A stretch of 62,059 nt of DNA, counting the filler. It is 12 parts of 12 records of this genome, joined end to end, with 100 filler letters (N's around TTAATTAATTAA, not from the genome) between each part and the next. Parts side by side here need not be neighbours in the genome. Positions count along the whole stretch, not along the records: positions 18,940 to 23,984 come from SRR15195285_11590; 11 more parts are not named here. The stretch is one strand, 5' to 3'. Positions 2,302 to 57,100 of this stretch are shown here, one piece after another; position 1 is the first letter of the stretch, and the number at the start of each line of letters is the position of its first letter. Both the position numbers and the translations under genes were made by a program. The notes below the pieces were generated by a model. The model was given only the letters and a program-made list of their open reading frames with translations, did not search any database and was not told the DNA's origin.

Positions 2302-5300
2302 TCATGACTTGCCCAAGATATCGACAGTAGCACTGAGAACCTCGACATCGTAGCCATACTCGTTGCTCACAATCGGGTTGCCCAGCAGGTCAAACTCCTG
2401 TCCGGCCTTTGACCCATCATCTGATGAGGCCGGGGTGGATCCCCTACGCTGCAGCTTAGCTGCATTCGCCAAAAGATCCTCCATCTCGGACATTCTACGA
2501 CGAGTGAGTTTCGGGCCCGCCCAACTTTTGGCTCGAATTTTCGCGCGTACACTTCTGGCGCCGCCTTGCTGCGGGGCTTCGTGGGCGGTCGGCGCAACCA
2601 TATCCTTGAGCTTGGCCAGACCTGCCTTTGTGTGGTTGCTATGGGCGCGTTTGAGCGGCGAGTTGCTGCCGCCGTCATCTCTGACTTTAAGTTTGTTGGG
2701 CTTGCCAGCGTCCAGCCAGCCGTTGCAAGGAAACACCCACGTCTGTTCTGTCCGCGTGTCTGTGATCTCGATACTTTCCAGCATCCAGCTAGCGCTAAAG
2801 CCCTCACCATCTTGCATTATTTTCACCTCCTTAAGGTTGCCTAGCTTCTGCATTGGTGGAAGCACGAACATGTCCGCCTGCCCGCGCTCGAACAAATTTT
2901 CAGGTGCATCGGCCTCTTTGAGCAGTTCCGCGGTGAGTTGTAACGGATCACCGTGTCTGCCTCCGATGGAACCCTTCTTTCCGAAGACTTCGATGGAGAC
3001 ATTCGCGTCTGTACCCGCGCCGGCCTGATCGCATGTACGCGTAGTGACAAGATAGACTGTGTCGTCATCGCCGGAATCGATTGCCTCGTCTGCATCCTGT
3101 TTGGCGTAAGCCATTCCAGCCATCAGAGCGTTCGATCCTCCCCAATGGCTCTTGGGCGCCTTCGGGTTGGTCGATACCGGCTGTTCAGTTTTCATGGTCA
3201 TCTGATTTGGCAGCCAGTGAATAGGCTTCATCAACCACAGGACCATTCTGTCCAAGGTCTCGATCTTCGCTCGAATTTGGCCCAACATATCCCAGCCTTT
3301 GGTACTCAGCGCGAAGAGTTTCCTTTCGGCTCGCACAAGCTGTGGCAACAGCTCGTGGTCAGAAGGCGGATCGAACGTTCTGATGGCTTGCTCACGCTCT
3401 GCTCGCTTTTTGGCTAGCTTCGCATTAGATTCGTGGCCGTTGCCATCCGAGCTATAGCCACCATCAGAATGATTCGGATCTGTTCGCTCTCTCTCCCTAG
3501 GCATCATTTCTTCTCGCCAGTCCATCACTTCTTGGCTGGCAGGAATGATTCGATTTGAAAGTTTTTCCATCTCTGCACAGCATTTCATCGCCTCGTCATC
3601 GATGATCCGCTCGAGTGCATTCTGCGCCTCGTGAAACACGCTTTCCAACAATTCCATCAACTCTTTCTCCAGAGGAGCGCCATCTACCCACAAAACCCCG
3701 ATCGCGACATGCGTTCCATGTTTTCGTGTGGCGAGGTCTAGGATCTTTTTCCGCCACTGGTGGCACATGCGCAGAGTCCCTGGCAAATGCGCAACTTCGT
3801 GCACAGTCCTACTTGCCTGCAGATCTCTGGCCTTCTTGTTAGCGAATAGCCAAAACTCATCCATCCCATCGAACATCCGCAAGCAAAGGCTCTTGGCATC
3901 TGAGTACGATTGCGCAACAGCATCATGTGTCGATGTAACGCTGTCTGCAACAAAGTTCACAGGAACAATATCCTCGATTCCCTGCACCTGGTTCATCTCA
4001 TGGAACGTCACGATACTCTTCACCTGTTCCTGAAACGCCTCATAAAACAACAGCCGTGGCGCATCGAACACCGCCACGAAGTCCTCCATCACTCGGCTCA
4101 GATTTTCCTTTATGGTGTTCTGACGTGGCTCAAAGTAGACCTGCGTCCAGCTGCCGTCCGCCAATGTCGGTTCTAAGTCAGCTTCTTGCCCTGCAAGTTG
4201 TCCGATCATTTTGACCACTTGCTCCTCCTTGCGTTCCGCAGTTACTTCCTCTGAAGGTTTAAAAGTCACGGCAGTACGGAAGTACTCGAGGTTGTAAGCC
4301 TCTTCTGGAAGCGTGCTCAGCAAACTGTTGACGAAGTAGTTGAAGTGGTTGTCGAGGATATCAGTCACGCAATACGCCGTGAGGAAGTCACACAGCCGAA
4401 TGAAGCGAGGCATCAGCACACTGTCACTTTCAGCTTCAAGCGGCTTGTGCGTTTCGCTAATTTTGGCGGGTTTGGGGTTGAGCCGGTTGTTCGGTCCGTA
4501 CTGCTTGGACCCTGGCATTCCGGGAAGCTTCGCTGCGTCCTTGCCGTGCTTTTTCCACCGATAGATCTCATCTTTCTCTGCCTGCTCTATATCCTTGGCC
4601 CGCTGGCGCATCTCTCCCGCCTTGACCTCGCTGATGACACGCTCAATCAAGCGCGACAGCTTTTCCATCATCTGCACGAACGATTCGTGCGATACAACCC
4701 GCTGTTCCTTCAACGCTTTCTGAAATTCAGCCATCGTCGACCGGCCATGCCTCTTCGGTTGGATAAGCTTGGACGGCGGCTGCGTAGCCTCCTCAGCGCA
4801 CTGCGTGACCACATCCCGCAGGCACTGCCTGAAAGTCGGCCGAAAACACATACAGCGGCTGCCTATGATCTTTCGCGTGCGCTGGTACTTCTGCTCACGC
4901 GCGGTGTGGTAGAACTTGTTAAACACCGCCCAAAGGCTCAGGTTGAACCGCCCCTCTCTGGCCTTGAGGTAAGTGGATTCCTGCAGCCACTCAGGCATAG
5001 GCATGAATTCGCCATGACCTGTCGATATTTGTGACACCACACCCGACGTGGTTAGGACGTAGTCCTGGTTGTTCAACTTTTCCACCGTGAGCGGCACGGA
5101 CGAAGATTGTTCGCATCGACCAGCGACCACTGGGACATCCGCGCTGCCCTTCTCCCGCTGGCATCGCGTCGCTCGGTGAATCACCACAACCTCCGAGGCT
5201 TTGGTTGTGGCTGTGTCTTTCTTTAAGACCTCGTCAAGCACAGCCACGCTCCCCGTTGGCTCATCCACACTGCCTGGTCGCAATGTCAGCAGCTTGGACG

Positions 5301-6387
5301 TGCCGTCCAACCAGGGATCATGCTCCTTCACCCATGGGAACTGTTTGTCGGCCAGAGGGGGATCAGCCTCAGACTCAAGGGTCTCCAGAACAGCCATGGC
5401 ACTAGCTGCCCTGGGCCCTGGTGCGCGGCGACCTGCCCGCACGCGGGTGCTGGTCCCTGCATCGGCTGTAGCATCTACAATCTTCGCGCCTGCCTTCACT
5501 TTCATCGCCGCGCCGCGGTAGCAAGCAAGCTCTTCCTTCGACTTGTTCCGGCCGACGCGTTCTTCCGTATACAGCACCTCACGCTTGGACGGTGCGACCT
5601 CGTGATCCAGCACTGACTGTTGATCAACGATCAAACCGTGTGGTAGTGACCCCGGTGCGCAGCGTGGAGCTTGCGAGGTGCGGGAGCGACGGCCATGCTC
5701 CGGCCCGAGAATGGAGAGCCTGCTATGCTGCTGGAGCGAACCCAGCTCCTCGGCACTTCGCGCCCGAAGATGGTTCAGCTCGTCATCAGCGAGGTCAGCT
5801 AGGTCTGCGTCAAGTTCTTGGGCCCAGTTTTCCTGCCCCCACGAGGACCCAACGGAATGGATCGCGCTCTCGCGCGTTTGGCGGCCGTCGGGGACACCCG
5901 ATGGGGTTGCGTTCCGCGACACCGCCGTCGTTTCGCTGCCGGCGCGATCAGCGAGAACTACGGAGACAGGCGACCCCGGACGGCCGAGGCTGTAGGTGGG
6001 ATCTATCTGGCGAACAAATCCCAGCGCCTCCGCCGGCACATCGGCGCCCTCCGCTGGTTGTGGCCGGCGCTGCCCAACATACGCGACGACGGAAAGGACA
6101 GCCCGAGGCATCCACGCACACACACACCACAGAGAGAGAGAGAGAGGACGCATGTGTCAGGTGCAGCCCAGGAGTCGCCAGGGTGAGCAACGACAGGACT
6201 GACTCACCAGTACCGAAAAACTCGGGTCGCTGCTCAGCTTCCGATTGCGCGCTGCACCGAACGCCGGCTGCACCCGCCAAGGGTCCTCCCGCTCCGCCAA
6301 CGGCTGCTGCTTCTGCCGCGGCGGCAGCGCCGAGAAGCCCGAGCTGTCCTCGCCCGGGAGCTGCGGCATGTCCCACATCGTCGCCAT
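2302..6387 (-). CDS. Large protein: inner-arm dynein heavy chain (DNAH6-like) N-terminal tail region plus PLAT/LH2 domain, no motor domain
   Basis: 1283-aa ORF 2302-6153. A probable first exon at 6387-6208 splices (GTGAGT donor 6207, CAG acceptor 6070) in phase 0. PLAT motif YLVTTRTCDQAGAGTDANVSIEVFG...LFERGQADMF...WMLESIEI...FPCNGWL. Dynein-tail similarity is by eye only. Confidence 0.6.
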
Positions 6388-18671: not shown

Positions 18672-19293
18672 GTCGGGCGCAGCCCTCGCTGCAGTGCCAC
18701 GCGTTCGCGGCCCCGTCGACTCCTCGAGACTACTCGTTGTCGAAGGAGTTGCCACTGGAAGGTCTAGCTAGCCTACAGTAGCGCCCCGGCCCCGGGTACG
18801 ATACTACCTGCAGGGTGGCCCGCAAATGCATGATATGCANNNNNNNNNNNNNNNNNNNNNNNNNNNNNNNNNNNNNNNNNNNNTTAATTAATTAANNNNN
18901 NNNNNNNNNNNNNNNNNNNNNNNNNNNNNNNNNNNNNNNAGAGGGCATAAGGCCTTATGCCCTCTATCAAGATGTGAGTTACATCGTCGGTGTGGGGCGT
19001 GTGTAAAGTGCGCGTACATGTACGTCTGCAAATTTAATTGACGCGGAGCATGAATCAATGCGGGCATGTTTGAGTTTTAGCATTATCGTGTTCCAGTAAA
19101 CAGGGATTTGGACAGCTCAGTATAAATGTCCACATAAACGCGATGAATGAAATTGCTAAGTCTTAGGCGACTCGATCGTAACCCGAGGCCTTACGCCCGG
19201 TGTCACGCTCACAGTTTCTGTCTTGTGTTTGAGCAGGTATTGTCGAGCAAGAATGACCTTCTCCGCGAGATAATAAAAGGAATCGACCATTCA

Positions 19294-22200
19294 TTACCAT
19301 ACGCCGATCGAGTCTCGCGCTGCGTACCGCCGTACGATCTCGTCCGCCATTGCTTCATGCTCGTGATTGAGGTTGCCGCCGGCAGGCCGCATCGCGAGAA
19401 ACTCTTGATGCTGAAACAACCGCGCGATCGCCGGGTCCTTGCACGCCTGCTGCTGCTCCTCGCTTCCAAAACTCCAGCTACACGACACCACCTCGAGGTC
19501 AACATCCTGAGTAACAGTAGCGGCAATCGAGCGCTGATGACTGAGTCCTTTCTGATGGACTGCGTTGCGAAGATGCTCAAGGACAGCAGGGTCTAGCAGT
19601 GCCCCATCGGTCAACACGATGAGCAGCCGCCGCGCCGCCTTTGCCGACTCCGTGCCACCGACCGAGAGTCCACGAGCGCGCAGCGAGCTCTGAAGGCTCG
19701 ATGCTGCCACATCGCCAGCTGGTGTGGAGTGAACGATTGCCACGTAGATGCTTTCGGGCTGGGCCAATGCTGCTGGCGCCGTCGGTGCACGCGCGAACGT
19801 AGACGCTTGGCGCGCTAGGCCACCGACAGGGACGGACGTTGTGCGCAGCAAATCGTCTGGAGACGTCAGGCTCGAAATGCTGTGCAGCCCATTCCTAGCC
19901 AAAATCGTCGCAATCATCGCGTTTGACTCGAAGTTGCGTCGGCGGTACGGAATCATCTGATCGATGTTGGCGTGGATCACGCCGGCAACCGTCTCCATCA
20001 TGTGTGTAGCCGCCGCTTTTCCACGACCCTCAACCTTGGCCAGCTCCTCTTTGCACCATGCATGCTCGTCGCTTGTCTTGCACTCTTGTGTCCACTCGTC
20101 GTAGTTGAACGGGTTGAAGCGCGGTTCAGTCTCGCACACAAGCATCACGTCCTTTTCCAGTTTGGCCGCGACGAAGATTTCCTCGATGCAGTACGGACGG
20201 AAAAGCACACCGTGCGTCAACACGAGCATGAAACACTGTGAATCCTCGACACCTTTTCTCATGCCTTCGAGGGTAAGGTTGTCCGCCTCCATATCGAGCC
20301 AACAAGAACAGCCCGACTTCTCTAGCATAAGGTATAGGCTGCGCACGAGGTCTGCCGCCTCCTTCTGAAAGTGTGATAGGAAAAAGTGGGTCGACGAAGG
20401 AACTGGTGCAGGTGTGGGCGCGTCCACTGAGAGGAATCGATGCGCCAGAATTTGACTCATCGACGGGCGTCTCGACGGGTCGGCCTGCAGGCAACGTGCG
20501 ATCAGGTTTTGTGCAGCTGAACGCTGCGCGTCTGTGCACGCGGAACTCTCGGCGAACACTCTCGCGAGCCGCGCATTGTCGATCGTCCTCCAGTTCAAGA
20601 GCTCAATCTTGCTTGTTGAGTCGTTCAGGTTGTCGTCAGACCGATCGGCATTGAACAACGGCAGGCTAGCGGCCAGCTCGTACAGCACACAGCCAAGGCT
20701 CCAGCTGTCAATTGACGTCGCCGAGACAGGTGGCTCAGTAGTCCCCAGAAGGATATGCGTCACGAGCTCCGGCGGGGCATACGCGGTCGAGGCCTTCAGG
20801 CCGGCCCCCCAGGCAGGTATCTTGCTCCCTATTCGGGACGCGGCATCCATGTCGATGACGCACAAGCGGCTGCTGCCATCATCTGCTCTAAAGCGGCAGA
20901 AGTTGCGCGGCTTGACGTCGCTGTGGACCAGACCTTGCTGATGCAAGTGCTGCAGACACTGTGTCATCTGCATGACAGCTAGCCGCACCCACTCTACGTC
21001 GCGCCCAACCTTTCGTTCGCTGCTGACAGCATCGAAGAGCGAACAATCACCAAGTGGCATCGCGAGCAGGAACTCAGACTCATCCACTTGCTGTCCCGAA
21101 GCACCATGGCGATGGAGCCGTCGAGCCCTCTCTGCTGGATCGATGCGCATCGCTTCTCGAACTCCAACGACATACCTCTCCTCCAGGTGACACTCTCGCC
21201 GCGCTGACACTTCCCGGTCCCACTCGGTCTCCTTTCGCATGATCTTGACGGCGACTGCGGCTTTCTCACGGCGCCGCTCGAGATCCACGCCCTTGAAGAC
21301 GATGCATGTCTCCGACTGATGAAGCTGGTCGAGGAGGCGGAAGCGGCCGGCATAGCTACCGTAAGTTCTTGACCATTCCCGGAGCGCAGCAACAGTGCTG
21401 TTGCTGGAGATAGCTGCAGGCGTGGTGTGTGAACCCGCGTCTCCGTTCAACTCAGCATGCAGATCGCCACCGTACTCGAGCAACAAACTACAGAGCGTGA
21501 GGTCCAGGTTATCGCCGCAGGTTGTTGCGAATAGAACAGCGCAGTAGAGCGGAGTGCGGCCATTTTTGTCTCTGCCGCGAGGGTCCGCCCCTAGTTCCAG
21601 CGCAAGCTGCATCGCACGATCGACGCGGCGACCCCATGCACCATCTGTGCGTGTGCGCAATATGAAGTCAGATCGATCGATACCTTGGCCTCGACAGAAG
21701 GACAGCATTGTGTCCGGCTCATCGTCGACAAGCATGGATGCGAGCCACTGCAAGACTGTGTTACCCTCCGCATCGGTGGCTTCGATGCCAGCCTGCCCTG
21801 ACGCAATGATGAGGCGTGCTGCGTCTCGGCGCTCCGTAAGAAGTGCCAATCGAAGTGCAGCGTGCTGCTGCTCAGTGCTACTGAAGGCACTCCCTCCATG
21901 ATCCAGCACAGTCTCGAACAGCTCTTGACTACCGAGCACAGCAAGGACGAGCGGTGATGATGTGCCACGCGGCAGCACGAAACGCTTCGGACGTGAAGTG
22001 CCCAGCAATCCCTTTAAACTGTACAGAGCGTCCACTTCTGCATCCTCCTCTGGAGTCTCACTCCCCCTTGCTCCTGATTTGTGCCGGTTGCCAAAGAGCT
22101 TGCCGACCTGCCTGGACACGGTTCCCAACAGCTTGGCACAAGACGCAATGCATAAAAGCCCAGCGGTAAAGAAAGGGCCTGCCTGAATTGATTGTACTAG

Positions 22201-23811
22201 GCGCTGAACAACCATGTTGACTACAGGGTAGCTCTTTGGTACGCCAAGCAGGTCTGAGTGAACGTCTAGCCCACGCGACAGCGCAGCTCGCGCCTGGTCC
22301 TCGTCGTCTACAAGCATCGACACGTCAAAAACTGCACCAGGCTGGCCATGGCAAGTTCTGACGCATCGCAAGAACCCAGCATCATCGGGTGTACGATCGC
22401 CCGGCTTGCGGTCCGGACTAAGCCGGGGACAGCCGACACAGACACGCCGTAGACACTTGGCATATCGAGGATTGCGGCCAGCCGACGCTTCGGCCACGTC
22501 CTCGGTGTCTCCAAATTCGTTGGCCTTCTTTGTCTTGCTGTCCTCCGCCTCCTGCCACGAAGTCACGCCTGGCCATGGATCAATGAACCTTTGGACAACG
22601 AAGATACCCAAGACCAGGCGCGCGAACACATAGAAAAGGAAGAGCGTCTCCGGCTGATCGTATTTGCACTCGAGTGCGGAGGTGTCGCAGTCCATCGTGT
22701 CGTTGCGTGTAGCGGCTTCAGCGCACGTCACCGTTGTGCACATCGACGCCCCGGAGACGCCACATGTCGGATTGCACTGTGTGCTTCTCACGATGGAGCA
22801 GTCTTCGTCGATGGCGTCGCATGAACTCTCGCCCTGGATATCTTTGCAACCAAAGCATGTGTTCGTGTTGTCACAGTAGTAACCTGCGTTGCAATTGGTG
22901 TGCGCCCGGCATTCGTTCGATTCGGGCTGGGCGCCACTGCGAATGTCTCCAGTCGGCACGATGACCAACCGCAGCCGCTCACTGCTCGCGATCTGCAAGT
23001 CGTACGCACTATCGGCTCCACATCTGCACGCGACCTCCTCACCATAGTCCCAGCGAATTCGGATCCACCCTGGATCCTCCGCACCGCAGGAGCCTATTGT
23101 GACCCCACCAGCTCTCAGATGATTGTCGAGCTCTGCCGCCGAGATGAAACCAGAGTGATTGGGGTCGAACGATTCGAACTTGTCCCTGTCGTAGACGCGG
23201 TGGTGCACATCAGCGCGATGTGCATCGAACTCATCCGGCGAAACGAAGCCGGAGCTGTCGGTATCGCCGAACGCGTCAAATGAGTTGTGTGTTTGATCGT
23301 ACTGCTGCCAAACGGGGCCTCGGATCACTTGCAGGCCGGCGACACCGTTGCTCTCCGTTACCGGCTTACCTACAACGTTGCCCAGCTCCGTGCCATTCCA
23401 GTCTGCGACCTGAAAGTACTGGTGTGCGGTGTCGTCGGCTGTACTTTGGAAGTCGCAGTTGTACAAGACGGCCAGGCGCGTGAGCTCGTAAACTGCAGGC
23501 TCAATTGGCAAGTACGCGGCCAGGAAGCAGAATAGGTGCACGCGCCACCTCCACACCGGCGCCCAGATCAGCACGTCCGCGTAGCCTAGCGTCGTGGTCG
23601 TCTGCCGATCCGCGCAGGTGTGCTCGTGCTCGCGGACGGCCTGGAACGAGTCATGTTCGAAACCACACCCAAAATCGCAGCAGAACTTGGGCTGAAGCGA
23701 TGCCACTTCTTCGGCACCAGCAGCGCCGCTGCTGGCGTCGACCAACGGGTTCGCAGTCTGGCACACGGGCTCCTCCGCGCCACCGGTCTCGTCGAAGAGC
23801 GCCTGCTGCAT
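19294..23811 (-). CDS. Multi-domain membrane protein: Zn-finger, TM, split MIB/HERC2 + EF-hand pair, Cys-rich region, TM, ankyrin repeats, protein kinase, TIR, degenerate TIR
   Basis: Single 1505-aa ORF. Kinase motifs VAVK, HSDVKPRN, IDMD, STAYAPPE, DSWSLGCVLYEL. Ankyrin motifs SPLVLAV, GNTVLQW, GRTPLYCAV. TIR motif FFLSHFQKE...WLDM...EGMRKGVEDS..F...LT...RPYCIEEI. Confidence 0.85.
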   Translation of the reverse strand: MQQALFDETGGAEEPVCQTANPLVDASSGAAGAEEVASLQPKFCCDFGCGFEHDSFQAVREHEHTCADRQTTTTLGYADVLIWAPVWRWRVHLFCFLAAYLPIEPAVYELTRLAVLYNCDFQSTADDTAHQYFQVADWNGTELGNVVGKPVTESNGVAGLQVIRGPVWQQYDQTHNSFDAFGDTDSSGFVSPDEFDAHRADVHHRVYDRDKFESFDPNHSGFISAAELDNHLRAGGVTIGSCGAEDPGWIRIRWDYGEEVACRCGADSAYDLQIASSERLRLVIVPTGDIRSGAQPESNECRAHTNCNAGYYCDNTNTCFGCKDIQGESSCDAIDEDCSIVRSTQCNPTCGVSGASMCTTVTCAEAATRNDTMDCDTSALECKYDQPETLFLFYVFARLVLGIFVVQRFIDPWPGVTSWQEAEDSKTKKANEFGDTEDVAEASAGRNPRYAKCLRRVCVGCPRLSPDRKPGDRTPDDAGFLRCVRTCHGQPGAVFDVSMLVDDEDQARAALSRGLDVHSDLLGVPKSYPVVNMVVQRLVQSIQAGPFFTAGLLCIASCAKLLGTVSRQVGKLFGNRHKSGARGSETPEEDAEVDALYSLKGLLGTSRPKRFVLPRGTSSPLVLAVLGSQELFETVLDHGGSAFSSTEQQHAALRLALLTERRDAARLIIASGQAGIEATDAEGNTVLQWLASMLVDDEPDTMLSFCRGQGIDRSDFILRTRTDGAWGRRVDRAMQLALELGADPRGRDKNGRTPLYCAVLFATTCGDNLDLTLCSLLLEYGGDLHAELNGDAGSHTTPAAISSNSTVAALREWSRTYGSYAGRFRLLDQLHQSETCIVFKGVDLERRREKAAVAVKIMRKETEWDREVSARRECHLEERYVVGVREAMRIDPAERARRLHRHGASGQQVDESEFLLAMPLGDCSLFDAVSSERKVGRDVEWVRLAVMQMTQCLQHLHQQGLVHSDVKPRNFCRFRADDGSSRLCVIDMDAASRIGSKIPAWGAGLKASTAYAPPELVTHILLGTTEPPVSATSIDSWSLGCVLYELAASLPLFNADRSDDNLNDSTSKIELLNWRTIDNARLARVFAESSACTDAQRSAAQNLIARCLQADPSRRPSMSQILAHRFLSVDAPTPAPVPSSTHFFLSHFQKEAADLVRSLYLMLEKSGCSCWLDMEADNLTLEGMRKGVEDSQCFMLVLTHGVLFRPYCIEEIFVAAKLEKDVMLVCETEPRFNPFNYDEWTQECKTSDEHAWCKEELAKVEGRGKAAATHMMETVAGVIHANIDQMIPYRRRNFESNAMIATILARNGLHSISSLTSPDDLLRTTSVPVGGLARQASTFARAPTAPAALAQPESIYVAIVHSTPAGDVAASSLQSSLRARGLSVGGTESAKAARRLLIVLTDGALLDPAVLEHLRNAVHQKGLSHQRSIAATVTQDVDLEVVSCSWSFGSEEQQQACKDPAIARLFQHQEFLAMRPAGGNLNHEHEAMADEIVRRYAARDSIGVW

Positions 23812-24141
23812 CCACGCGGCGCGATCGAACCCGTATTATACCGTAGCGTCCAGCTAGTGTACGCGTAACGGCGGTCGGGCGCGTGCGTGGACGGAATGAA
23901 CCCGGCCGGGGCGGCCGCGGGGGCCGCCGGGCGCATCAGCGCGCGAGTCGCACAGACACCGCTCCAGCATGCACTCCAACTGTCNNNNNNNNNNNNNNNN
24001 NNNNNNNNNNNNNNNNNNNNNNNNNNNNTTAATTAATTAANNNNNNNNNNNNNNNNNNNNNNNNNNNNNNNNNNNNNNNNNNNNTCCGGAGTGAAAATAT
24101 GATATTCTTGGTATTTTCGTGATTTTCAGCCAGCTTCTCGA

Positions 24142-33779: not shown

Positions 33780-35976
33780 GGAGCCGGAGCCGGAGCCGGA
33801 GCCGGAGTACAATGGTCCGCCTGGCGGCGACCCGTACTTGCTCGAGCGAATGGATCGGCTCCGCGCCGAGTTTCAGGAGGAGCAGCTGCACAAGGATTTT
33901 GCAGCGGCTGACACGGATGGCTCGGGCGCGATAGACCGCCAGGAGTTCACGCGGCTTATGTGGAAGCTGCAGGGCTCGATGAGCGACGCAGAGATCCAGC
34001 AGCAGCTGAACGTTGTAGATAGCGACGGCGACGGGGAAATTTCGTTCGCTGAGTTTCGAGTCTGGTGGACGTCACCGTTCATGGAGAAACTACGCAAGCA
34101 GCATAGAGCTCGGCTTGGTATTGCGGAGGAATGGGATCCTGGAGACGTCGAGAGGAGGATGGCGGTGAAGCGCGCTGAACTGGAGGAGGCCAGGCTGGTG
34201 CGCACTTTTAAAAGTGTCGACACAGATGGCTCTGGTGAGATCGAGCTAGACGAGTGGGTTGTGCTTATGCGAAAAATGGCACCCCATCTACCCATCGGGT
34301 CCGTCGAATGGACTTTCAAGTGCATCGATGTCGACGGCAGCGGAGCAATCGACTTTGAGGAGTTCAAGGGGTGGTGGTACTCGGAGGAAGGCCTGGCCCT
34401 GCGCGGAGAACCGTCGCGGAAAGAGCAGGAGGCTACACGGCTCGCAGGACTGCGCAAAAAGTTCGAAGAAGAGCAGGCTGCGGCAGAGGCAACGCGCAAG
34501 GCAAAGCAGGAGTATGAAGCTCAAGTAGCACGCGAGCAGCACACAGCCGCCGCCCGGCTGCAAGCGGCTGCGCGCGGTCGCCAACAGCGCGTCCAGCGAG
34601 AGCTAGAGCGAAAAGCTGCCTCCAAACTACAAGCTGTATTCCGTGGACGCCGTGGACGCGGGACAGTGGAGCGTCTGAAGGGTGAGGTGTTTGATGAAGG
34701 TGTACGAAACGCTAGAGACTTCCACATCTCTCGGATGAAAGCAAGGCAGCAGGCAGCTCAATTTCTTGGATTGCCACCGCCAGTCTCGCCGCTCGTAGAA
34801 GTTTCAGCGATGAAACGAAATGTGCTCGGGCAACTCTGGATGGAGCCTGCGCGCGAGAGCCCTGAAAAAGTGGCAGCGGTGAGTTTGGAGCGAAAGCTGT
34901 CTCAAGACTATTTCTTGTTGCAAAAGTCAGCTTCCACCACAATGGAGCGGTTCGACTACGACAGATGGAAGAGAGGCACTGAGATTGAGCAATGTGGCCT
35001 GTGGGACGAGGTCGATCAATTGAAAATGCAAGCTTTACTCGCAGAGGAAGAGAAGAAGCAGTGTCGGATGAAGGAGGAGCAGCGCGCCCAGCGTCTTGGT
35101 CGGCTGGAGGCCATTATGAGCCGTGCAGCACCCGACGAGGGCAACGAGGGAAAAAGTGGCGAGATGCGTGAACCCTCCTGGGTCCAACGTGGATCCAATA
35201 TTTCATTGGGGCGGCGCCCATCGATCCAGGCCGCACAACGTGAGCTCGAAAGCGCTCGTATGCTGCGCCCAAGATGGAAAGCTGGGGCAGCAGTCTCGCA
35301 GTATCGCGCGCACAGACCCACAGTCTTCGGGGAGCGGCGACCAAACGCGGACGCGCCAACTCATGAGCTGGCGGCAGAGATGGCGAATCGTCCGAGTCTA
35401 TCTTTTGACGGTTCTTGGGCATCTGTGCCAGCAAGCCGCGCACCATATGGTGCAGAGGCAGCGGTTTCCAGGCCTGAGGAGACCATTTGTGACACGGCTG
35501 ATGTCGAGTTTCTGCCAATTGACAGCTTATACAGCACACCGGATCTATCAGGAGGCGACTCGACAGACAGTGTGTGGCGCATCAGCGGCAGTGAAACTAA
35601 TTTGCAGAGCAATATCGACAGCGCGCCTGGTTCGCCAGTGATTCAGCGGCAGCAGGAGACCTCGCCAAAACGACCTCGCTCGGCGGGCGGTCTAGAGAGC
35701 TCGAGTCGTCTTTATTCTGCTTTCATGGTCGGGTCGCGCCGTCGCTGCAGTACTACGAATTTCCTTGGGAGCGAAGCAGAGCGTGCTGTCTGGCTGCAAG
35801 AAAGGGCCAAATGCTCGATGCGAGTTGGAGCACGGCCTATCTCCGGCAGCGTGCTGCGACAAACATCGACGCGACTGGCACGACCACCATCAGCGGAGAA
35901 GAAGTTACCGCAGATAGTGCTGGAGCAGACTGGTATCCAAATGAGTGGCGAAGACATTGAACGCTTTGTACGATGA
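33780..35976 (+). CDS. Four-EF-hand, two-IQ-motif coiled-coil protein (5'-truncated)
   Basis: DTDGSGAIDRQE, DSDGDGEISFAE, DTDGSGEIELDE, DVDGSGAIDFEE; LQAAARGRQQR and LQAVFRGRRGR; (GAGCCG)n = EP repeat at contig start. Confidence 0.85.
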
Positions 35977-36129: not shown

Positions 36130-39100
36130 TTAAAGTGTGATGTCACTCTTCTGTCCGCTGGCATACATGGACATTTCCATACCATCATCTGCAGCGGCGG
36201 CTCCCTTCTTCCCGCCGCACACCGCTTTTGCGACGATGGCTCCGACCAGCAACCCACCAAAAAACACCGCCGCGAGGGTGCCCATTCCAGAGCCAGTCTG
36301 AGACTGAGCGTCCGCCTCGATATCAGTGATAGCCGCCCCAATGCTGTCATCGCACGGCGCTGTTGTAGCGCCGCTGTCACTATTCTGGTTTGAGGAATCA
36401 GAACGACCGCTGGGAGAGCGGCCTCCTGGTTCAATAGTGGCACACAACCACCGGTCACCGTTCGGTTTGTGGATGACGATTGAACGGCCGACGACGGAGT
36501 CATCACCGAAGAGTGGCAAGTCAACGACAGTCACGCCGACTTGTTCGACGCGCGCAGTGCTCAGTGTGCCAACTTTGGCTGAAAGCGCCCAGACATCGGT
36601 CTGGTAGCCTGTCGGGGAGTAGTGGCCACCAGTGGAAGCACAATCTGAGTCGCCGAGCACAGCACTCTCATGAACATGAAATGCACAGCCTGGAGGCGTC
36701 GCGCATTCCGTTAGACCGCGAAACTCGAGCGCCACGGTGCTAGGGTCATCAGCCTTCGGCTGTTCGATTACAACACGACCGCGCACGCTGCCGGCGCGGA
36801 AGGAGGCAGTCGCAATCGCGCCGCCAACAGTGAGCTCGACAGAGTCAGAGATGGTGTTGACGCCCTCTGTAGAGTAGACCTCGCAGCGGTAGGCACCGAT
36901 ATGGCAGTCGTCAACATGGGCAATCGTAAAACGCGGGAGAGTCGCGCCGAAGATCGGCACGCCGTCCTTTAACCACTGGTAGATGTATGGTTTAGCCCCA
37001 CCGTGCACGGTGACTGAGAATGATACCCTCGAATTGTGCTCAACCTCTAGGAGCCCACCGTCTGGGGATTGGTTGCTGACGACGATGGGTGACACGTCAG
37101 GGTTCCAACCCTTCTGGCCTATGAACCGATCGAATAGAGCCAAAGCCTTGACTGGTTCATCCTTCGGGACCATGTGTCCGGCGTGGTACACCGTGGCGAA
37201 AGTGAACTCCTTGTCATCCGCCGTGCGCCATGAGGAGACATAGCCGCCCACCTGGTTATCGACAATCCAGGGTGTCCAGTCATCTACAGTTGTGTAGTGG
37301 TTGGCCGCGGCGACGTCTTTGGTCCACGACTCGGTGCCAATATAAGGAACGCACGCGTCAACATCGCCAGAAAAGATGAGCACGTGGTACCGCTCGATCA
37401 GGGCGGGGAACCGTGGTAGCAGCGTTGACGTTGCACCCCGCTCATAGTCGACATTTTTCATGCCACAATCGCGCCAGAGGTAGGAGCGTGGACTATCGCC
37501 GTACATCTCCTTCATCTCGTTTTGTGACTTGACGTGGATCGCTGCACGGACGTCGTCTCGGTTGAGCCACTGGGTCAGGCCGTCGCTTCCTCCCCAGCAG
37601 CCACTCAGCCCGTGCGCGTATAGGTCATCGCTGTCTGCTAGTCCCAGTTCATGCATCCATGCGGCCTCGCGATGAGGCTTTAGCAGCTTCACTGTATCAT
37701 ACATGTGCTGGGGCCCTGTTATCCGGGCCTCACGACGCGAAGTAGAACCGGCGCAGGCGGAGTCTTCATGCTCAGCCTCTTGAGTCTCTTGAACCCGGCG
37801 ACCTCCTACGCCACCACCACACATCTGCTGCACACGTTCTGCCTCGGCTGTTTCGTTGACCTGTGGGTCGTCCTTGCACGTGTCGTAGATGCCATATATG
37901 TTGAGCGTCCCCATGTCGTCCTCGTAGCGCCGTGTGGCTTCGCAGCAGCTGAAGTTGGGATCAGACTCCGGCTTGGGGCAGTACCAGTGGCAAGTACCGT
38001 TGGTCATACGTGGCCCGCGGCATTTGTCTGCCAAACCTTGATCGATGTCTCCGAAAACGGTCCGCGGAAGCTCGGTCACCCGTTCAGAACAATCGCGCCA
38101 GCCCAGCGGACCATGGCAGTTCGAGAGAACATCCTCGTACGTATCGTCTGAAATGAGCGCATGTTGGTGCGCGAAGCTGAGCTCTATTCCAGCAGCAGAG
38201 TCGAGGAAGTCCACGATGTTGGGACGCTCGCCACAACTGACTGTGTCGGTGCCTGTGCAACCGTTGCCCACCATGATGCCCTGCAGGTTCATCTGCTGGC
38301 CAATTGAGATATCCCCACCCTGGACCGTCTCTCCCCTGTCTTGGCCGAACATTATCTGCTCTGCCAAGGTTGGTACATAAATTCCTGCATAACTCTCACC
38401 CGTGAGATAGAGCTCGTTTTTACCAAATTGCGGGTAGCGTTCGTAAAAGCGCTTCATGAATAGGTAATTCATTTCAGCCGTGGAGTTGTCGTTGACCTTG
38501 ACATTTCGGCCGAAGTCACTTTCTGTCGTGTATGAAAAGCCGACGCCGATCGGCGACTCGAGGTAGATCATGTTCGCAGGCCCACACCATGTGTGAGCGT
38601 TATGCCCGACCTCTTTCGGGTCCTCCTCGTTGACACGCCAGGGACCCATTTCGGTGAATAGTCCACCCATGCTTGAGCAGCCCGGGCCACCGTTCAGCCA
38701 AAGCACAACTACGTGAAGCAACAGCGATTTCAACATGTTGTCAATTGACCGCAACTTGAATGAGAGCGACTGCAGCGCCGAGCTGTACACCGTGTCTTAC
38801 GCATACGCATCTAGACAGAAACTTACCAGGTGCGTGCGCAGGATCGACCTGCTCTGCCTCGACGAACCAGTAATGCAGCATCCTTTTGCCTGTGAATGGT
38901 GTGGGCATGTCTGCGCACGACACTGGAGCGCTGTCCCGGTCGTCGTCGCAGTCAGGGGTGACGTCGATGTACCCGGAGTACTGCTTGGAAGGGAATTGCC
39001 CAGTCCAGCCAGGGAGAGACTTGATCTCATCGGCTGTACATTCGGATGTAAGACATCCGTCGACAGTTGTAGCTACAGCTACCTGGACGCGCTCAGAAAT

Positions 39101-41394
39101 GGCGTATGTGCCATCCATCTCTTCAACACGGACGTGATACTCTCCAACGTGGCACGGTTCAGCATTGTCAACACTCATCTCCTCCATCGTCTCGCCAGGA
39201 AGAAGCGCACCGTCCTTGTACCACTGGTAAAGGTAAGGAATGCTGCCGCCCTCGACTTCGACTCTGAGAGTTATCCTGGACCCTTTGAAGACGGATACCG
39301 GTTGGGGCGCTGACGTGATCCTCACCGAATTGCTCTGCGGTGGCGCCCAGCCTTTGTTGTTGATGTAGCGGTCAAAAAGCGCTAGCGCCTTGCGGGGCTG
39401 GGTCTGTGGTACCATGTGCCCCGCACCAAAAACAGTGGCGAACGTGAACTCATGCGCTCCGGCGTCGTAGACGGTTACGTAGCCTCCAACCTGATCCTGA
39501 ACTGTCCATGCATGCCAATTTTCCGTGGGGGTCCACCGGTTGTCCACAGCTAACTCTTCAGTCCACTTCTGCGTGCCCGTGTACGGCACGCACGCGTCGA
39601 CATCTCCGGAAAATATCAGCACGCGGATATTCTCCACGAGGTACGGGTATCGAGGCATGAGCGAATGTGTGTAGCCGCGATCGTAGTTGAAGTTGCCGGA
39701 GCGCGAAGCACAGATGGACCAGTCCGCTCCGTCGTCTCCATACAGGTCAATCATCTCCTGCCGAGACATCACGTGGATCGCGGCGCGAACATCATCGCGG
39801 TTAAGGTACTCGGTGGCACTCTCGGTGCCACCCCAGCAGCCACCTAGGCCGTAGAGTTCATTCTCTACTGTCTCTTCGCGGTCGAAACGAGAAGATTGGT
39901 ACATAGACTCCTTCGCTTCCTCTGACCAAGTAAGGTTCCCCTGCCTGCCCTGGCGGCGGGCGTTGTCCTCCGGCCCGGCGGAGCAATACTCGTATATTCC
40001 ATACACGTCGAGATCTCCAATGTCGTCATCGTATCCGTCCATGGCATTGCAGCAGTCGTACATTGGGTGATTCGCCGAGAGCTTGCACGAATAGTACGGT
40101 GTCCCACCGCATCCGTCGCAGTAGCGTCTTGTCCAGCTGCTTTCGTCGTCGCAGCACCCAGTATCATTGTACGGCCCCCTGAGTCTGAACTCTCCGCGTC
40201 GCTCGTAGCCACAGTCTCGGTCGTCTTCCGCAACCTCGCCGTAGCGCTTCTCGCGACATTCGCTACGGGTGTTGAAAGTTGCTGGGGCAGCAGCACAGGA
40301 CGTCATGATGCTCTCGAAACTTGCGTGCGAGATGATCGCGTGGTCGTGCAGGAAGTTGACGCGCGAAGAGGCAGGGCTTGCCATGAATTCTGTCGTCTTC
40401 ATTTTCTCCGCATAAGCAGTTATCACTTCTGCTGGGGGCTCGCCGCAGCTCCAGGTCTCTTCGCCGTTGCACCCGTTCCCCACCAGGATGCCCTGCAGCG
40501 GCTGCGCCTCGCCTCGCCACGGCTTGGACCAGAGGTCAGGATCCTCGTTGTCGCGCCCCCATAAGATCTGCTCAGCGAGCGTGGGGATGTAGATACCAGC
40601 GTCTGTGGCGGCAGCGCACGGGTTAGAAAAAGCTCGCTTGCTATGCCCAACAGGAGTCTTGTCACGTGGAACTCCATCCAATACTCACAGCTTTCTCCCG
40701 AAAGGTAGAGGTCGTTGTGTTTGTACTCGTCGAAGGCTTCGAAGAACCGCTTCAGCCCCATGTAATTCATCGCGGCCGTGCTGTTGTCATTGATTGATGT
40801 CATATCCTCGCCGAGCGTGTGGTACGAGAAGCCGACGCCGACAGGAGCCTCCAGATAGATCATGTTCGAGATGGTCGTCCAGGCGTGCGGGTTGTGCTCC
40901 AGCTTGGTGAAGTCGCGGTCGTTGACGTGCAGCGGGCCCATCTCGTAGAAGAAGCCGTCCATGCTGCTGCAGCCGGGGCCGCCGTTCAGCCACAGCGTCA
41001 CAGGCGCCGTGCTCGGGTCCACCTGCTCCGCTTCCACGAACCAGTAGTGCAGCATCTTCGACTCGTCGCGCTCCTCGCTGATGTCGAGGTAGCCGCTGTA
41101 ATGCCTGCTCGGCAGGCAGCGCTCCGGCGGGTCGGCGGCCCGCGCGAAAGGTGGCACTTGCGCCATACCTGCTCCGTTGACTCACCACCTTGAGCAGCGC
41201 CCCAAAACAGCACAGAATATCACTGCAAAACTGATCAGTGCTCCGGCAAAAGAAGAAGAAAAAACGTGTTCGTCGGAACAGCAGGTACACTTCCAGCCAG
41301 GCAGCGCCCGGCCGTCTACGCGGTCCTCCTCCTTCATCGCCCTCGCCGCCCCGCCCAGCAAGCCCACCATCGCCAGCGAGCCTACCGCCCTCAT
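36130..41394 (-). CDS. Type I membrane protein: signal peptide, S10 carboxypeptidase, Ig, second S10 carboxypeptidase, Ig, Cu-only SOD-like domain, TM
   Basis: Two complete S10 sets (WLNGGPGCSS, GESYAG, SGDVDACVP, AGHMVP). Ig motifs YQWYKDG...GEYHV and YQWLKDG...GAYRCEV. SOD motifs FHVHE, TGGHY, SVVGRSIVIH, WLCATI. Introns 40688-40603 and 38826-38709 join the ORFs in frame; the first intron boundaries are uncertain. Confidence 0.85.
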
Positions 41395-54110: not shown

Positions 54111-57100
54111 ATGCCGCGTCGAGGCTCCAGCATGAACGGGCGCGGAGGGAAGCCGGTGGCGAATCCGATGTACGCCGACCTGGACGCCCCGTTAGGCGGG
54201 TCCAAGGACGTGGTGCTTGGCTACGAGGACGTGGTGCAGGAGGGGCTCGGGGCAGCGGGCGAATACGACCGCCCAATGCGCGATGCCTGCTGTCGCAAGC
54301 GTGGCAACCTCGACCACAAAGTCTGCAGTGATATTTCCTGCGTGACGTTTCTCACGGTGCATGAAGTGAAGAACATCGAGATGGTTTTCAACCTGATCTG
54401 CAAGCTAGTGCACGATGAGGGTCGGCTCGAGTTCGTCACGCGCTACAGCAAGAATGCATCGCGGGAAACCGACAAGCACAGGCACATGGCGCTGACGACG
54501 GAGCAGCTCCGCGAGTATCTTCCCGAGTTTGCACAGAATGTGTTTCTGCCCCGGCTGATTCGCTTGTTTAGTGAAACGGGCGACCAGAAGCTGTCTGTTC
54601 TTGAGCTGATCGACATGTACTCCGCCCTCTCCCGTCGCGCACACCTGAAATGGAAGATGACAGTGGCGTTCTGTGTCTACGACTACGATGAGGACGGTGT
54701 GCTCGATGAGGGTGACCTGTTTCGTACCATATCAACGATGCTCACCGGTACCACGACGAGCAAGCGGGTATCTGCAGAAGCAGCGGCGCTGCGTATCCAA
54801 GCGCGGGCCCGCGGCCGCGCGGTGCGCCGCAAGCGCCCCCCTGGCGCCAGCCACAGCACCAGCGCCGGTGCTAGTCCAGGACCGATCGCTGGGTACGCGA
54901 CGCGGATTTTGAATGAGTGCAGCAGCATTCGTAGAGACATCATGGACTACCGGTACTTCGAGAAGCAGATGGCACTCGTCCCGACGTTCAGGGACAATTT
55001 TAGTGTCACACCGACCAAGTACAGCGAGATATACCGCCGGTACATGGCATATCAGAGGTTAAAGGTAATGTCCGACAGCGGCAAGCGAGCATGTGGCTCG
55101 TGCTGGGGTCGATTCTTCACTAGGCTCCCTGGTGAGCAGTCGATGACGGTGAGCAACCCAATGCTGTCCGGTGTTACCGATCCACTTATCCAGCAGGCGC
55201 TGGAGACCAGCAAACTCACTAAAGATGAGAGAGCGGAAGTGCGGCAGGCACTTGCGCCCAGCCTCACGGTGCACCGTTACTTTGCGAGCGAGATTGTCAT
55301 CAAACGTGGGTCAGAAGCGGATGAGATGTACTTAATTGTTGCCGGTGTAGCGGAGGTTTTGCTGGATCTTGAGAGCGAAGCTATCAACGAGCTCAAGCAG
55401 GATGACTATTTTGGAGAGATAGGTATGCTGCATGAGATCAAGTCGAAGCGCACCGCGTACGTTCGAGCAAAGACTGAGCTGGTTGTCTTGAGTTTGGGGC
55501 GGACAGAACTGCAAGCGCTGATGGCCGAGCACCCCAGCCTGAAAGTATCACTGCTTGCTCAAATGGACATCACCTTGGAACGAAATCATCTCAGGACTGA
55601 GGCGCAGTTGTGGAGCCGCTACGATCAGCACGAGACCGGATGGATCGTCGTGAAGGACTGCAGGAAGATGGTCCGGTGCATCCTCACAGAAGATGGACAA
55701 GTACGCAAGGGAGGCAATAAGAACAAGAAGGATCCGGACAGTATAGTGGGCATAGTCAATTTGCTTCTCACGCGCAGTTTTCAGTACGAGAACCAGGGCA
55801 AAGACTCCGTGTTCAAACCAGTGGCGACCTCTGGTGTCGTGCAGCAACAGCCGAAGCCCAGAACGTGGCTCAAAGCCGAAGCAGTCGCGCGTATCTGTTT
55901 CCATGAGTGGTGGGAGGAGCAGCCTACGCCGGTTCACCGGCATACGGCCAGCCGCTTGAAACTCGAGCGGATCTGGTCAGATCTCGACCACGACGACGAT
56001 GGTGTTCTGAACCAGAATGAGGTCCGTGCTTTGCTATTCCGGATGGGTGATTTCGCAGAGGATGAATTTGACGAAAAGGTGGAGCACTGGTTTGCGGCGC
56101 ATGATTCCGGGGGCGATGGCAACATCAGTATGAGGGAATTCGTACCGTGGTTCTGCGCACAAGACCCTCAAGCCATTGCGAGGGCAAATTACGTGGACTG
56201 GCGTCAAGTAAGCGATGAGCTACATCACAGAGATGCTGACGTGGTCTGGCGCGATGAGGACGTTGGCTTTGTCGCCAAGATGAAACAGATGGACGACGAA
56301 CTTGCGGGGATCGACGAGCGCCTTCGCGCTAATGATTCGTTGCTCAAAGATGACTATGACAGCGCCACCAACGTGCGCAGCATTCTTTCAGGGCGAGGCT
56401 GGGAGCCTTACGGCATCCACGGTGCTGTTCGGCCACCAATGATCCGAACTCGAATGCAGATATTCCGGAAACTCAACACAAAAGGTGACACGAAGTATCT
56501 GCGCGATGCTGAGCACCGTAAAGACCACTGGCGCCTCATGAAGACTATGGAAACTGTCGGACAGTCAGCCGATGCAGAGTTTGAGTACATCGGTGACATT
56601 TTGGGCGAATACACAGACACTGGAATCTTTGGTAGGTGTGGCTTCCTGCGGGTGCTGTATGACCTGAAGCTATGGATGAAGACGCACATTTTCCAGGCTC
56701 ATTTGGGTCTGTTTGAAACTTCGATCCTGCTTCTGGAGCATGAGTTTGGACACGGGATTTCAGAGGTGATGCGAATCATGAAGTGGATGCTGCTGCTCAA
56801 CCTTGGGCTGGGCATCATGTGGATGACGTTGGTCATCGTGCCACGCGATTATGCTCACTCTGATGAAACGATGTGGAATACCACCAAGCTTGTTCTGCGC
56901 GGACTTGCATTCTCAGGGTCGCAAGGCCGCAGCCTCTTCTACGACGGCTACGCTAGACAAAATGTTGAATTTTTCGGACTTGAGCTGCGTATGGATGTGC
57001 TGTACTTCGTCGCCATCTTGTTGCATGTACTTCTATCGCTATTTGCAATCCTCCGGACTCTCGGCATGAAGCTAACGACCCTGGCCCAAGGTGGCGTAGT

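Follow-up and report, generated by a model that had tools for sequence, protein, structure and literature searches.

P0001, a predicted membrane-anchored kinase-TIR receptor, and the protein family to which it belongs

The P0001 gene occupies positions 19294..23811 of a DNA stretch of 62,059 nucleotides (the window, to which all coordinates refer) and encodes a protein of 1505 aa plus stop in a single exon. It is located on the minus strand, as are all of its features given below. The protein combines an N-terminal region with hydrophobic segments, ankyrin repeats, an atypical protein kinase domain, a TIR domain of the SARM1/bacterial type (TIR1) and a degenerate C-terminal TIR. With moderate confidence we regard P0001 as a membrane-anchored, sensor-gated receptor whose TIR would cleave NAD+ (kinase-TIR NADase) by the mechanism proposed below. 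It belongs to a large, uncharacterised family that is built on a kinase-TIR core. The original prediction, a transmembrane ankyrin-kinase-TIR-TIR receptor, had been confined to 19294..22650. This range holds all the features listed at the time, but the frame reaches 23811 and thus adds 387 upstream residues. Missed in that part were the Cys/His motif, the MIB/HERC2-like domain together with its inserted EF-hand pair, and a stretch rich in Cys.

The kinase-TIR core of P0001

TIR1 comprises residues 1141-1312 (19876..20391) and is distinguished by the motif PYRRRNFE and by a helical insert at about residues 1233-1285. The hidden Markov model check that had been recommended for this domain gave a clear match of TIR_2 (PF13676, STIR clan) to residues 1143-1227 (E 1.4e-8, 35.7 bits vs a cut-off of 28), and TIR1 has the flavodoxin-like TIR fold. 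The original prediction located a catalytic Glu in the stretch RPYCIEEI (residues 1205-1212), and its second Glu, E1211 (codon 20179..20181), indeed aligns with the catalytic Glu in the profile alignment, where Y1207-x3-E1211 resembles the WxxxE motif. The position is occupied by Glu in 24 of 24 and 59 of 59 sequences of the two family alignments, the former being the TIR-only family profile A3; around it, an aromatic residue at -4 is present in 59/59 and Cys at -3 in 56/59 sequences. A PDB search with the profile A2 was swamped by its kinase columns, and A3 was used in its place. Single-sequence phmmer searches with TIR1 returned chance-level matches only. A3 matched PdTIR (2.5e-5), AbTir (1.2e-4 and 2.9e-4), TcpB (1.4e-4), TIR-1 (3.6e-3) and SARM1 (about 8e-3), and it puts the family motif [FY]CxxE onto the WxxxE of AbTir. 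The activity of AbTir requires W204 and E208 (PMC10641520), and E1211 is the catalytic-equivalent residue because it is aligned with AbTir E208. TIR1 is hence a predicted NADase equipped with the catalytic Glu.

The best profile matches to the family TIR are the bacterial TIR_2 NADases AbTir, PdTIR and TcpB/BtpA (E 2.5e-5 to 2.9e-4). They are short proteins with coiled-coil N-termini, whereas the family TIR contains the helical insert and a PYRRRxFE motif. The TIR NADases of SARM1 and its Caenorhabditis elegans equivalent TIR-1 are likewise matched by A3. The SARM1 TIR resembles TIR1, but P0001 is devoid of ARM and SAM domains in the Pfam scan; SARM1 is regulated by its NMN/NAD-sensing ARM domain, whereas the regulation of P0001 would come from the kinase and the degenerate TIR.

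The C-terminal unit (residues 1354-1502; 19306..19752) had been described as a second, degenerate TIR-like unit, and profile comparisons bear this out. Pfam yielded no match of the TIR clan on residues 1354-1502 at E<=1. However, hhalign aligned the profile of the C-terminal unit (derived from A2, 56 rows) with the TIR1 profile (59 rows) over 130 columns with a probability of 98.6% and E 8.4e-15, whereas reversed or column-shuffled TIR1 profiles reached a probability of at most 0.1% and E values of at least 0.48 in seven of seven controls. Residues 1354-1502 have the TIR fold. In this alignment LLIVLTDGALLDP is matched to FMLVLTHGVLFRP and EHEAM..EI.RR to NFESNAM..IL.R, and the C-terminal unit is therefore an internal duplicate of TIR1. 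The position equivalent to the catalytic Glu is H1413 in P0001, and 56 relatives have no fixed residue there (Q 11, L 8, H 5, S 5, E 5, T 5, and further ones); the C-terminal TIR should therefore be catalytically dead. It has a conserved W, F, E, R, E cluster of its own, formed by W1446, F1448, E1470, R1475 and E1484 in the numbering of alignment A4.

The atypical kinase domain spans residues 816-1130 (20422..21366). Pkinase (PF00069) matches residues 846-1127 with E 1.2e-26 (94.2 bits vs a cut-off of 31.7), and the motifs of the earlier reading were confirmed at their places. The Lys of VAVK (853-856) and the stretch HSDVKPRN (963-970) are intact, DMD (987-989) replaces DFG, and the P-loop LHQSETCIV (830-838) shows none of the three glycines of GxGxxG. 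P0001 keeps the key residues K856, E867 of helix alphaC, H963, D965, K967, N970 and the DFG-Asp D987, followed by M and D989. Their conservation was determined in an alignment of 69 members with at least 330 residues before the TIR (non-gap counts; P0002 was left out as a near-duplicate). Lys is present at position 856 in 46/51 sequences, the alphaC Glu at 867 in 50/53, His at 963 in 64/67, Asp at 965 in 63/67, Asn at 970 in 64/68 and the DFG Asp at 987 in 67/68. The position of the DFG glycine is occupied by Asp in 61 of the 68 sequences and by Gly in a single one, which results in the family motif D[LMF]D, and the glycine-rich loop is replaced by the motif [VIL]HxSxTCxV (H 25/39, S 32/39, T 25/40, C 22/41). 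Since they are family-wide, DMD and the missing glycine loop represent selected hallmarks of the family rather than signs of decay. Among kinases of solved structure, GSK3, DYRK, TTK, PIM1 and SNRK come closest, all with modest E-values, and no sign of an IRAK relationship was seen. In many relatives the match to the Pkinase model begins only at about profile position 70, thus indicating a divergent N-lobe. Judged from these residues, the kinase-like domain could act as an atypical kinase, or its role might be confined to that of a switch that binds nucleotides.

The ankyrin-repeat region precedes the kinase (residues 601-815; 21367..22011). Its matches were weak in the Pfam scan of the whole protein. 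When residues 600-830 were scanned alone, Ank_2 (29.8 vs 27.3 bits), Ank_4 (29.1 vs 22.7) and Ank (21.9 vs 21.1) passed their cut-offs, so that the ankyrin repeats of the original prediction are retained. The designed-ankyrin chain 1n0r from the PDB furthermore matches residues 733-759.

The regions of P0001 differ markedly in their conservation. Identity to P0003, P0004 and P0005 is highest for the TIR1 core (92, 78 and 67%), followed by the kinase (82, 60 and 38%). In the ankyrin region it falls from 76% to 45 and 18%, and the C-terminal domain is at 56, 50 and 33%. The TIR is under the strongest constraint and the sensor parts evolve fastest.

The kinase-TIR family and its known counterparts

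Our exhaustive search with the module of TIR1 and dead TIR as query recovered 1217 relatives at E<=1e-3, 359 at E<=1e-10 and 10 at E<=1e-30, counted as cluster representatives. Among the 152 matches listed, 47 cover both TIR1 and the dead TIR, 86 are confined to TIR1 and 19 are of other types; the dead-TIR duplicate thus follows TIR1 in about a third of the listed relatives. The Pfam scan took in 119 of these 152 matches, and the counts of Pkinase and sensor domains were made by hand. Pkinase is present in 42/62 (E<=1e-4) and 34/57 (E<=1e-6) scanned matches, and among proteins of at least 500 aa the proportion rises to 38/38 and 29/37, i.e. 67/75. It is always located N-terminal to the TIR, with a linker of typically about 15-30 residues between the Pfam matches. 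A profile search of longer proteins found PF00069 together with PF13676 in 29 of 29 matches. The sensor domains of the kinase-bearing matches are diverse and comprise LRR (14), Ank (10), SAM (2) and one case each of WD40, Kelch, SPRY, PA, CH and EF-hand. The N-terminal sensor region is swapped among relatives on a fixed kinase-TIR core.

The domain order of P0001 is shared by P0002 to P0005. The closest relatives are a 94%-identical metagenome fragment and two proteins with 76% and 53% identity from Picozoa assemblies, and the closest named ones stem from Picozoa single-cell assemblies. The named sources of the family are Picozoa sp. COSAG01, COSAG02 and COSAG05, Picomonas judraskeda, Paulinella chromatophora and P. 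micropora. The eight long proteins without Pkinase include types in which several TIRs are combined with WD40 or a TIR with Roc-COR. P0077 and P0093 (2023 and 2208 aa) contain seven TIR_2 stretches followed by WD40 propellers, without a kinase. P0112 (P. micropora P019298 in the TIR atlas) has the order TIR-Roc-COR-TIR-TIR-SAM, which corresponds to a ROCO-type GTPase flanked by TIRs of the family.

The choanoflagellate precedent for kinase-TIR fusions that the original prediction invoked is borne out by the literature. Richter et al. 2018 (eLife, PMC6040629) named 'Kinase TLRs' with the architecture LRR-TM-Pkinase-TIR, where TM denotes a transmembrane segment, and 'Kinase TIRs' with Pkinase-TIR and no TM. 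Both classes are defined by Pfam architecture only and are called unique to choanoflagellates; Paulinella, Picozoa and Rhizaria are not mentioned in the text. Like P0001 they pair Pkinase directly with a TIR in one polypeptide, and they are uncharacterised and proposed to be streamlined receptors, as is the P0001 family. P0001 has the order TM-kinase-TIR of the Kinase TLRs, but it is without LRR in the Pfam scan. Its TM candidates separate it from the Kinase TIRs, whereas its soluble relative P0005 would fit their definition. P0001 adds ankyrin repeats, a dead second TIR, the D[LMF]D motif and a glycine-free P-loop, which sets it apart from both choanoflagellate classes by architecture and motifs.

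An atlas of eukaryotic TIRs with 13 TIR clades has been presented in a preprint (Culbertson et al. 2026, PMC13142454). Among the entries of its supplementary table that were seen, Pkinase is combined with TIR in two bacteria (Parafrankia and a Lachnospiraceae), in Paramoeba and in one choanoflagellate, Salpingoeca macrocollata, whose Pkinase-TIR_2 protein keeps the canonical DFG and has about 74 residues of linker. The atlas also records that TirE of D. discoideum has two diverged tandem TIRs, and the related entries that were seen carry the label 'Not in supported Clade'. A Pythium oligandrum protein of the same table contains Ank repeats and two tandem TIRs, without a kinase, and looks in this excerpt like a kinase-less oomycete parallel of the P0001 architecture. 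The main text mentions neither kinase nor Picozoa nor Paulinella, and the kinase-TIR-deadTIR core is not described there as a family. Six homologue identifiers of the P0001 family were not found in the table, nor were four family motifs, the latter in a weak search because cells of more than 400 characters are truncated. A preprint on giant viruses and TIRs does not mention a kinase. Our searches of the literature on kinase-TIR proteins, protists, Picozoa, Paulinella and giant-virus TIRs found no description of the P0001 family.

N-terminal region, membrane segments and genomic setting

The Pfam scan matched nothing on residues 1-110, 288-389 and 411-600 of P0001, and a homologue search with the N-terminal 600 aa returned an orthologue fragment, P0192, as the sole match. 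A Cys/His motif, CCDFGCGFEHDSFQAVREHEHTC (residues 44-66; 23614..23682), was read from the sequence and is kept in P0003 and P0192; it is a possible zinc-binding site without a Pfam match. A MIB/HERC2-like domain follows at about residues 150-275 (22987..23364). MIB_HERC2 (PF06701) scores only 22.7 bits on residues 244-275 of P0001, below the cut-off of 33.5, and the domain is split here by an EF-hand insert; the fragment P0192, which is 42% identical to P0001, reaches 46.3 bits. The insert is an EF-hand pair at about residues 178-240 (23092..23280) that was recognised by EF-hand_6, with 27.1 bits in the whole protein (residues 209-236) and 32 bits, in two stretches, in the N-terminal part alone (cut-off 25). 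Two loops of the DxDxxG type are readable at residues 183-194 and 214-225. The pair is missing from both homologues that cover the region, P0003 and P0192, which is indicative of a recent, lineage-specific insertion inside the MIB/HERC2-like domain. A Cys-rich stretch with 16 Cys (residues 301-382; 22666..22911) is kept in P0003 and P0192, and a juxtamembrane motif, CxxxxCxxCPRLSPDR...CxxxC (residues 453-487; 22351..22455), is kept in P0003 and P0004; both are without a Pfam match.

Three hydrophobic segments were evaluated by Kyte-Doolittle values and by Hessa-type 19-residue sums, for which the best stretch of the soluble domains reaches about 7 kcal/mol. Segment 2 (residues 388-410; 22582..22650) corresponds to the transmembrane helix of the original prediction and upholds it: it is the most hydrophobic 19-residue Kyte-Doolittle stretch of P0001 (2.06), with a Hessa-type sum of 1.7 kcal/mol, as judged by these scales, and it is hydrophobic in P0003 and P0004 as well. 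Segment 3 (residues 544-566; 22114..22182) has values of 1.74 and 2.4, with four K/R among the 15 residues of its C-terminal flank, and its counterpart in P0003 is at least 32 hydrophobic residues long. It is a candidate for a second TM helix or a membrane hairpin. Segment 1 (residues 80-111; 23479..23574) is a marginal TM candidate in P0001, since its values of 1.25 and 6.6 are near background; the equivalent stretch of P0003, with 2.26 and 0.4, is a clear case. Hydrophobic segments are completely absent from the relative P0005, which makes the membrane anchor an accessory of the kinase-TIR core.

Three N-glycosylation sequons are located between segments 1 and 2 of P0001 and three elsewhere, and the corresponding numbers for P0003 are four and five. 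The density between the segments is thus four to five times that of the rest of the protein, although the numbers are small. We favour a topology in which the N-terminus would be cytosolic, residues 110-387 outside and the rest cytosolic, with residues 544-566 as a membrane hairpin. An alternative arrangement with two TM helices would keep the whole N-terminal region in the cytosol and expose only residues 411-543, and it fits the EF-hand and MIB/HERC2 domains, which are usually cytosolic. A topology with three TM helices, in which the kinase and the TIR would be extracellular, was set aside as implausible, although it is compatible with the data.

The window has been assembled from separate contigs by 11 joins with N44-TTAATTAATTAA-N44 spacers (e.g. 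18840-18939 and 23985-24084); gene adjacency across the spacers is therefore artificial and the neighbours are not real. The P0001 gene is the sole open reading frame (ORF) of its contig of 5045 bases (18940-23984). A tblastn search of the window for a second copy returned only the gene itself. The ORFs of the window, among them a ferric reductase, a beta-lactamase-like protein, an eIF4G-like protein and others, were ruled out as genomic neighbours by the spacers, and their annotations show only that the bin is eukaryotic. Some of them have noteworthy architectures in their own right. An ORF of 1933 aa (54111-59912, plus strand) joins a TMC (transmembrane channel-like) domain to a cyclic-nucleotide-binding domain and a pair of EF-hands and is an unusual candidate for a ligand- or Ca-gated TMC. 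A serine carboxypeptidase S10 domain is fused to a Cu/Zn superoxide dismutase domain in a single ORF (36130-38736, minus strand), and the adjoining ORF (38741-40402, minus strand) contains an S10 and an Ig_3 domain. PLAT is the only recognised domain of an ORF of 1283 aa (2302-6153, minus strand), and an ORF of 708 aa (33850-35976, plus strand) encodes a multi-EF-hand/EH protein.

The homologue P0003 (1431 aa) shares the N-terminus MQQ..LFD of P0001. DNA nearly identical to the gene is present in marine and seawater metagenome runs from 12 studies, and contigs matching it were found in three RNA-library runs. X7 contributes 15 matching contigs, all at least 99% alike, in 23 of 30 bins, and its gap at 23165-23840 carries no information, since the runs are assembled contigs; six contigs of X17 and three of X19, an oligo-dT RNA run, also match. 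No splice joints in the gene were seen among the contigs of four public runs. The gene is likely transcribed, and P0001 represents a real and probably expressed single-exon gene of a marine picoeukaryote. No related loci were detected in the prokaryote genomes and viral contigs searched, nor in metagenome contigs with P0001 as query; the related-locus search with profile A1 yielded a single locus of 2.8 kb, L001, without informative context. PADLOC matched no TIR defence model, only the generic kinase models mad6, PD-T4-6 and MkoA.

Proposed mechanism and alternative explanations

TIR NADases such as SARM1, plant TIRs and AbTir need self-association to build the active site around the catalytic Glu. 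RNase L consists of ankyrin repeats, a pseudokinase and an effector, in IRE1 a TM helix lies between the sensor and a kinase with its effector, and in both proteins dimerisation of the kinase domain turns on the effector. P0001 follows the same domain logic, a likeness that is functional only and, at the sequence level, is seen in the kinase fold alone: the effector of IRE1 and RNase L is a KEN ribonuclease, whereas Pfam identifies a TIR after the kinase of P0001. By analogy, a signal at the sensor region would cause self-association of the cytosolic part, with the kinase domain acting as a nucleotide-dependent dimerisation or autophosphorylation switch in the logic of IRE1 and RNase L. Self-association would join TIR1 domains and thereby create a composite NAD+-cleaving site around E1211. 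The output would be the depletion of NAD+ or an ADP-ribose-derived signal that leads to cell death or a defence state, and the dead TIR may serve as a built-in partner or regulator of TIR1. The receptor of the original prediction stands with respect to its architecture and the position of the catalytic residue. The domains, the folds, the residue conservation and the architecture of the family are supported by the data, and any enzymatic activity, the sequence of steps, the membrane topology and a part in immunity are inferred.

Several points weigh against this mechanism. A conserved Glu alone does not prove NADase activity, and the glycine-free P-loop and the DMD motif make ordinary ATP binding and phosphotransfer uncertain. 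The topology is unsettled, with two clear segments and a marginal one in P0001 and three clear ones in P0003, and the cytosolic habit of EF-hand and MIB/HERC2 domains sits badly with the reading of the N-terminal region as an ectodomain. The gene is alone on a contig of 5 kb and thus lacks genomic context. The matches from RNA libraries consist of contigs, and libraries of this kind may contain some DNA. Variable repeat-domain N-termini are, moreover, also found in non-immune signalling kinases.

The most serious alternative concerns the kinase, which would not phosphorylate but bind a nucleotide or a small ligand and control the TIR solely by dimerisation or allostery, as the pseudokinase of RNase L controls its nuclease. 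This explanation is compatible with the NADase part of our proposal, and we regard it as possible though clearly less than probable. It draws on the P-loop without glycine and the family-specific motif in its place, on the Asp at the position of the DFG glycine (61/68, with Gly in 1/68), on the N-lobe that is divergent in many relatives, to judge from Pkinase matches that start at about profile position 70, and on the short linker that couples kinase and TIR tightly. However, none of the three residues by which pseudokinases are usually recognised has been lost (VAIK Lys, HRD Asp and DFG Asp), and the alphaC Glu and the Asn of the catalytic loop are preserved too. Conversely, the TIRs might be mere adaptor or assembly modules as in TLR/MyD88, with the kinase as output in the manner of a built-in IRAK and NAD+ left uncleaved; we consider this quite unlikely.

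The membrane-anchored NADase receptor that we prefer need not serve immunity. P0001 could be a sensor of the environment, of Ca2+ or of stress that modulates either NAD+ metabolism or a programme of development or cell death not connected with pathogens, an explanation to which we accord a minor chance. It agrees with the EF-hand pair inserted in P0001 and with the absence of any virus or pathogen link from our results, and SARM1 acts in a non-immune death programme. Yet LRR, WD40, Ank, Kelch and SPRY sensor regions are swapped on a fixed effector core, and the sensor parts are the fastest- and the TIR the slowest-evolving portions, which is typical of immune receptor families but no proof. 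Finally, the fusion could be an artefact, produced by chimeric assembly or by run-through between genes that are in fact separate. The gene resides on a short contig of a binned or concatenated assembly with repeats at both ends: the contig starts with a perfect 26-base palindrome (18940-18965), its ends (18940-18965 and 23955-23984) show about 15-20x the depth of the gene body in one DNA run, loose ends are present, and this suggests genomic repeats that broke the assembly. Against an artefact, P0002 to P0005 and dozens of relatives of other origin show the same domain order, and the open reading frame is uninterrupted over 1505 codons. Independent DNA contigs of X1 (20162-20461 and 20436-22176) bridge the kinase-TIR and the Ank-kinase junctions, and the kinase-TIR junction is also bridged by a contig of 495 bases (20049-20543) from the RNA library X7. 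A spurious fusion is thus highly improbable.

TIR NADases are a death and defence module common to bacteria, plants and animals, and to our knowledge their use by protists is almost unknown. As a tentative extension that we hold to be conceivable but doubtful, the family might represent a widespread, unrecognised class of protist immune or suicide receptors that operates without a STAND/NLR ATPase. The kinase with its HxSxTC and D[LMF]D motifs would be a ligand- or nucleotide-gated dimerisation switch, the dead TIR a partner or brake, and the swappable sensors would set the specificity, possibly for abortive infection by giant viruses in marine picoeukaryotes. The P0001 gene provides an entry point to this large family, which counts 359 cluster representatives at E<=1e-10, and the glycine-free P-loop common to its members poses a small puzzle for kinase biochemistry. 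If our proposal is true, the kinase-TIR architecture, so far named only for choanoflagellates, reaches Picozoa, Rhizaria and uncultured marine eukaryotes. It would then represent a second way of gating a TIR enzyme, besides the NLR-type ATPases, and it would supply testable candidates for antiviral or programmed-death pathways of ocean picoeukaryotes.

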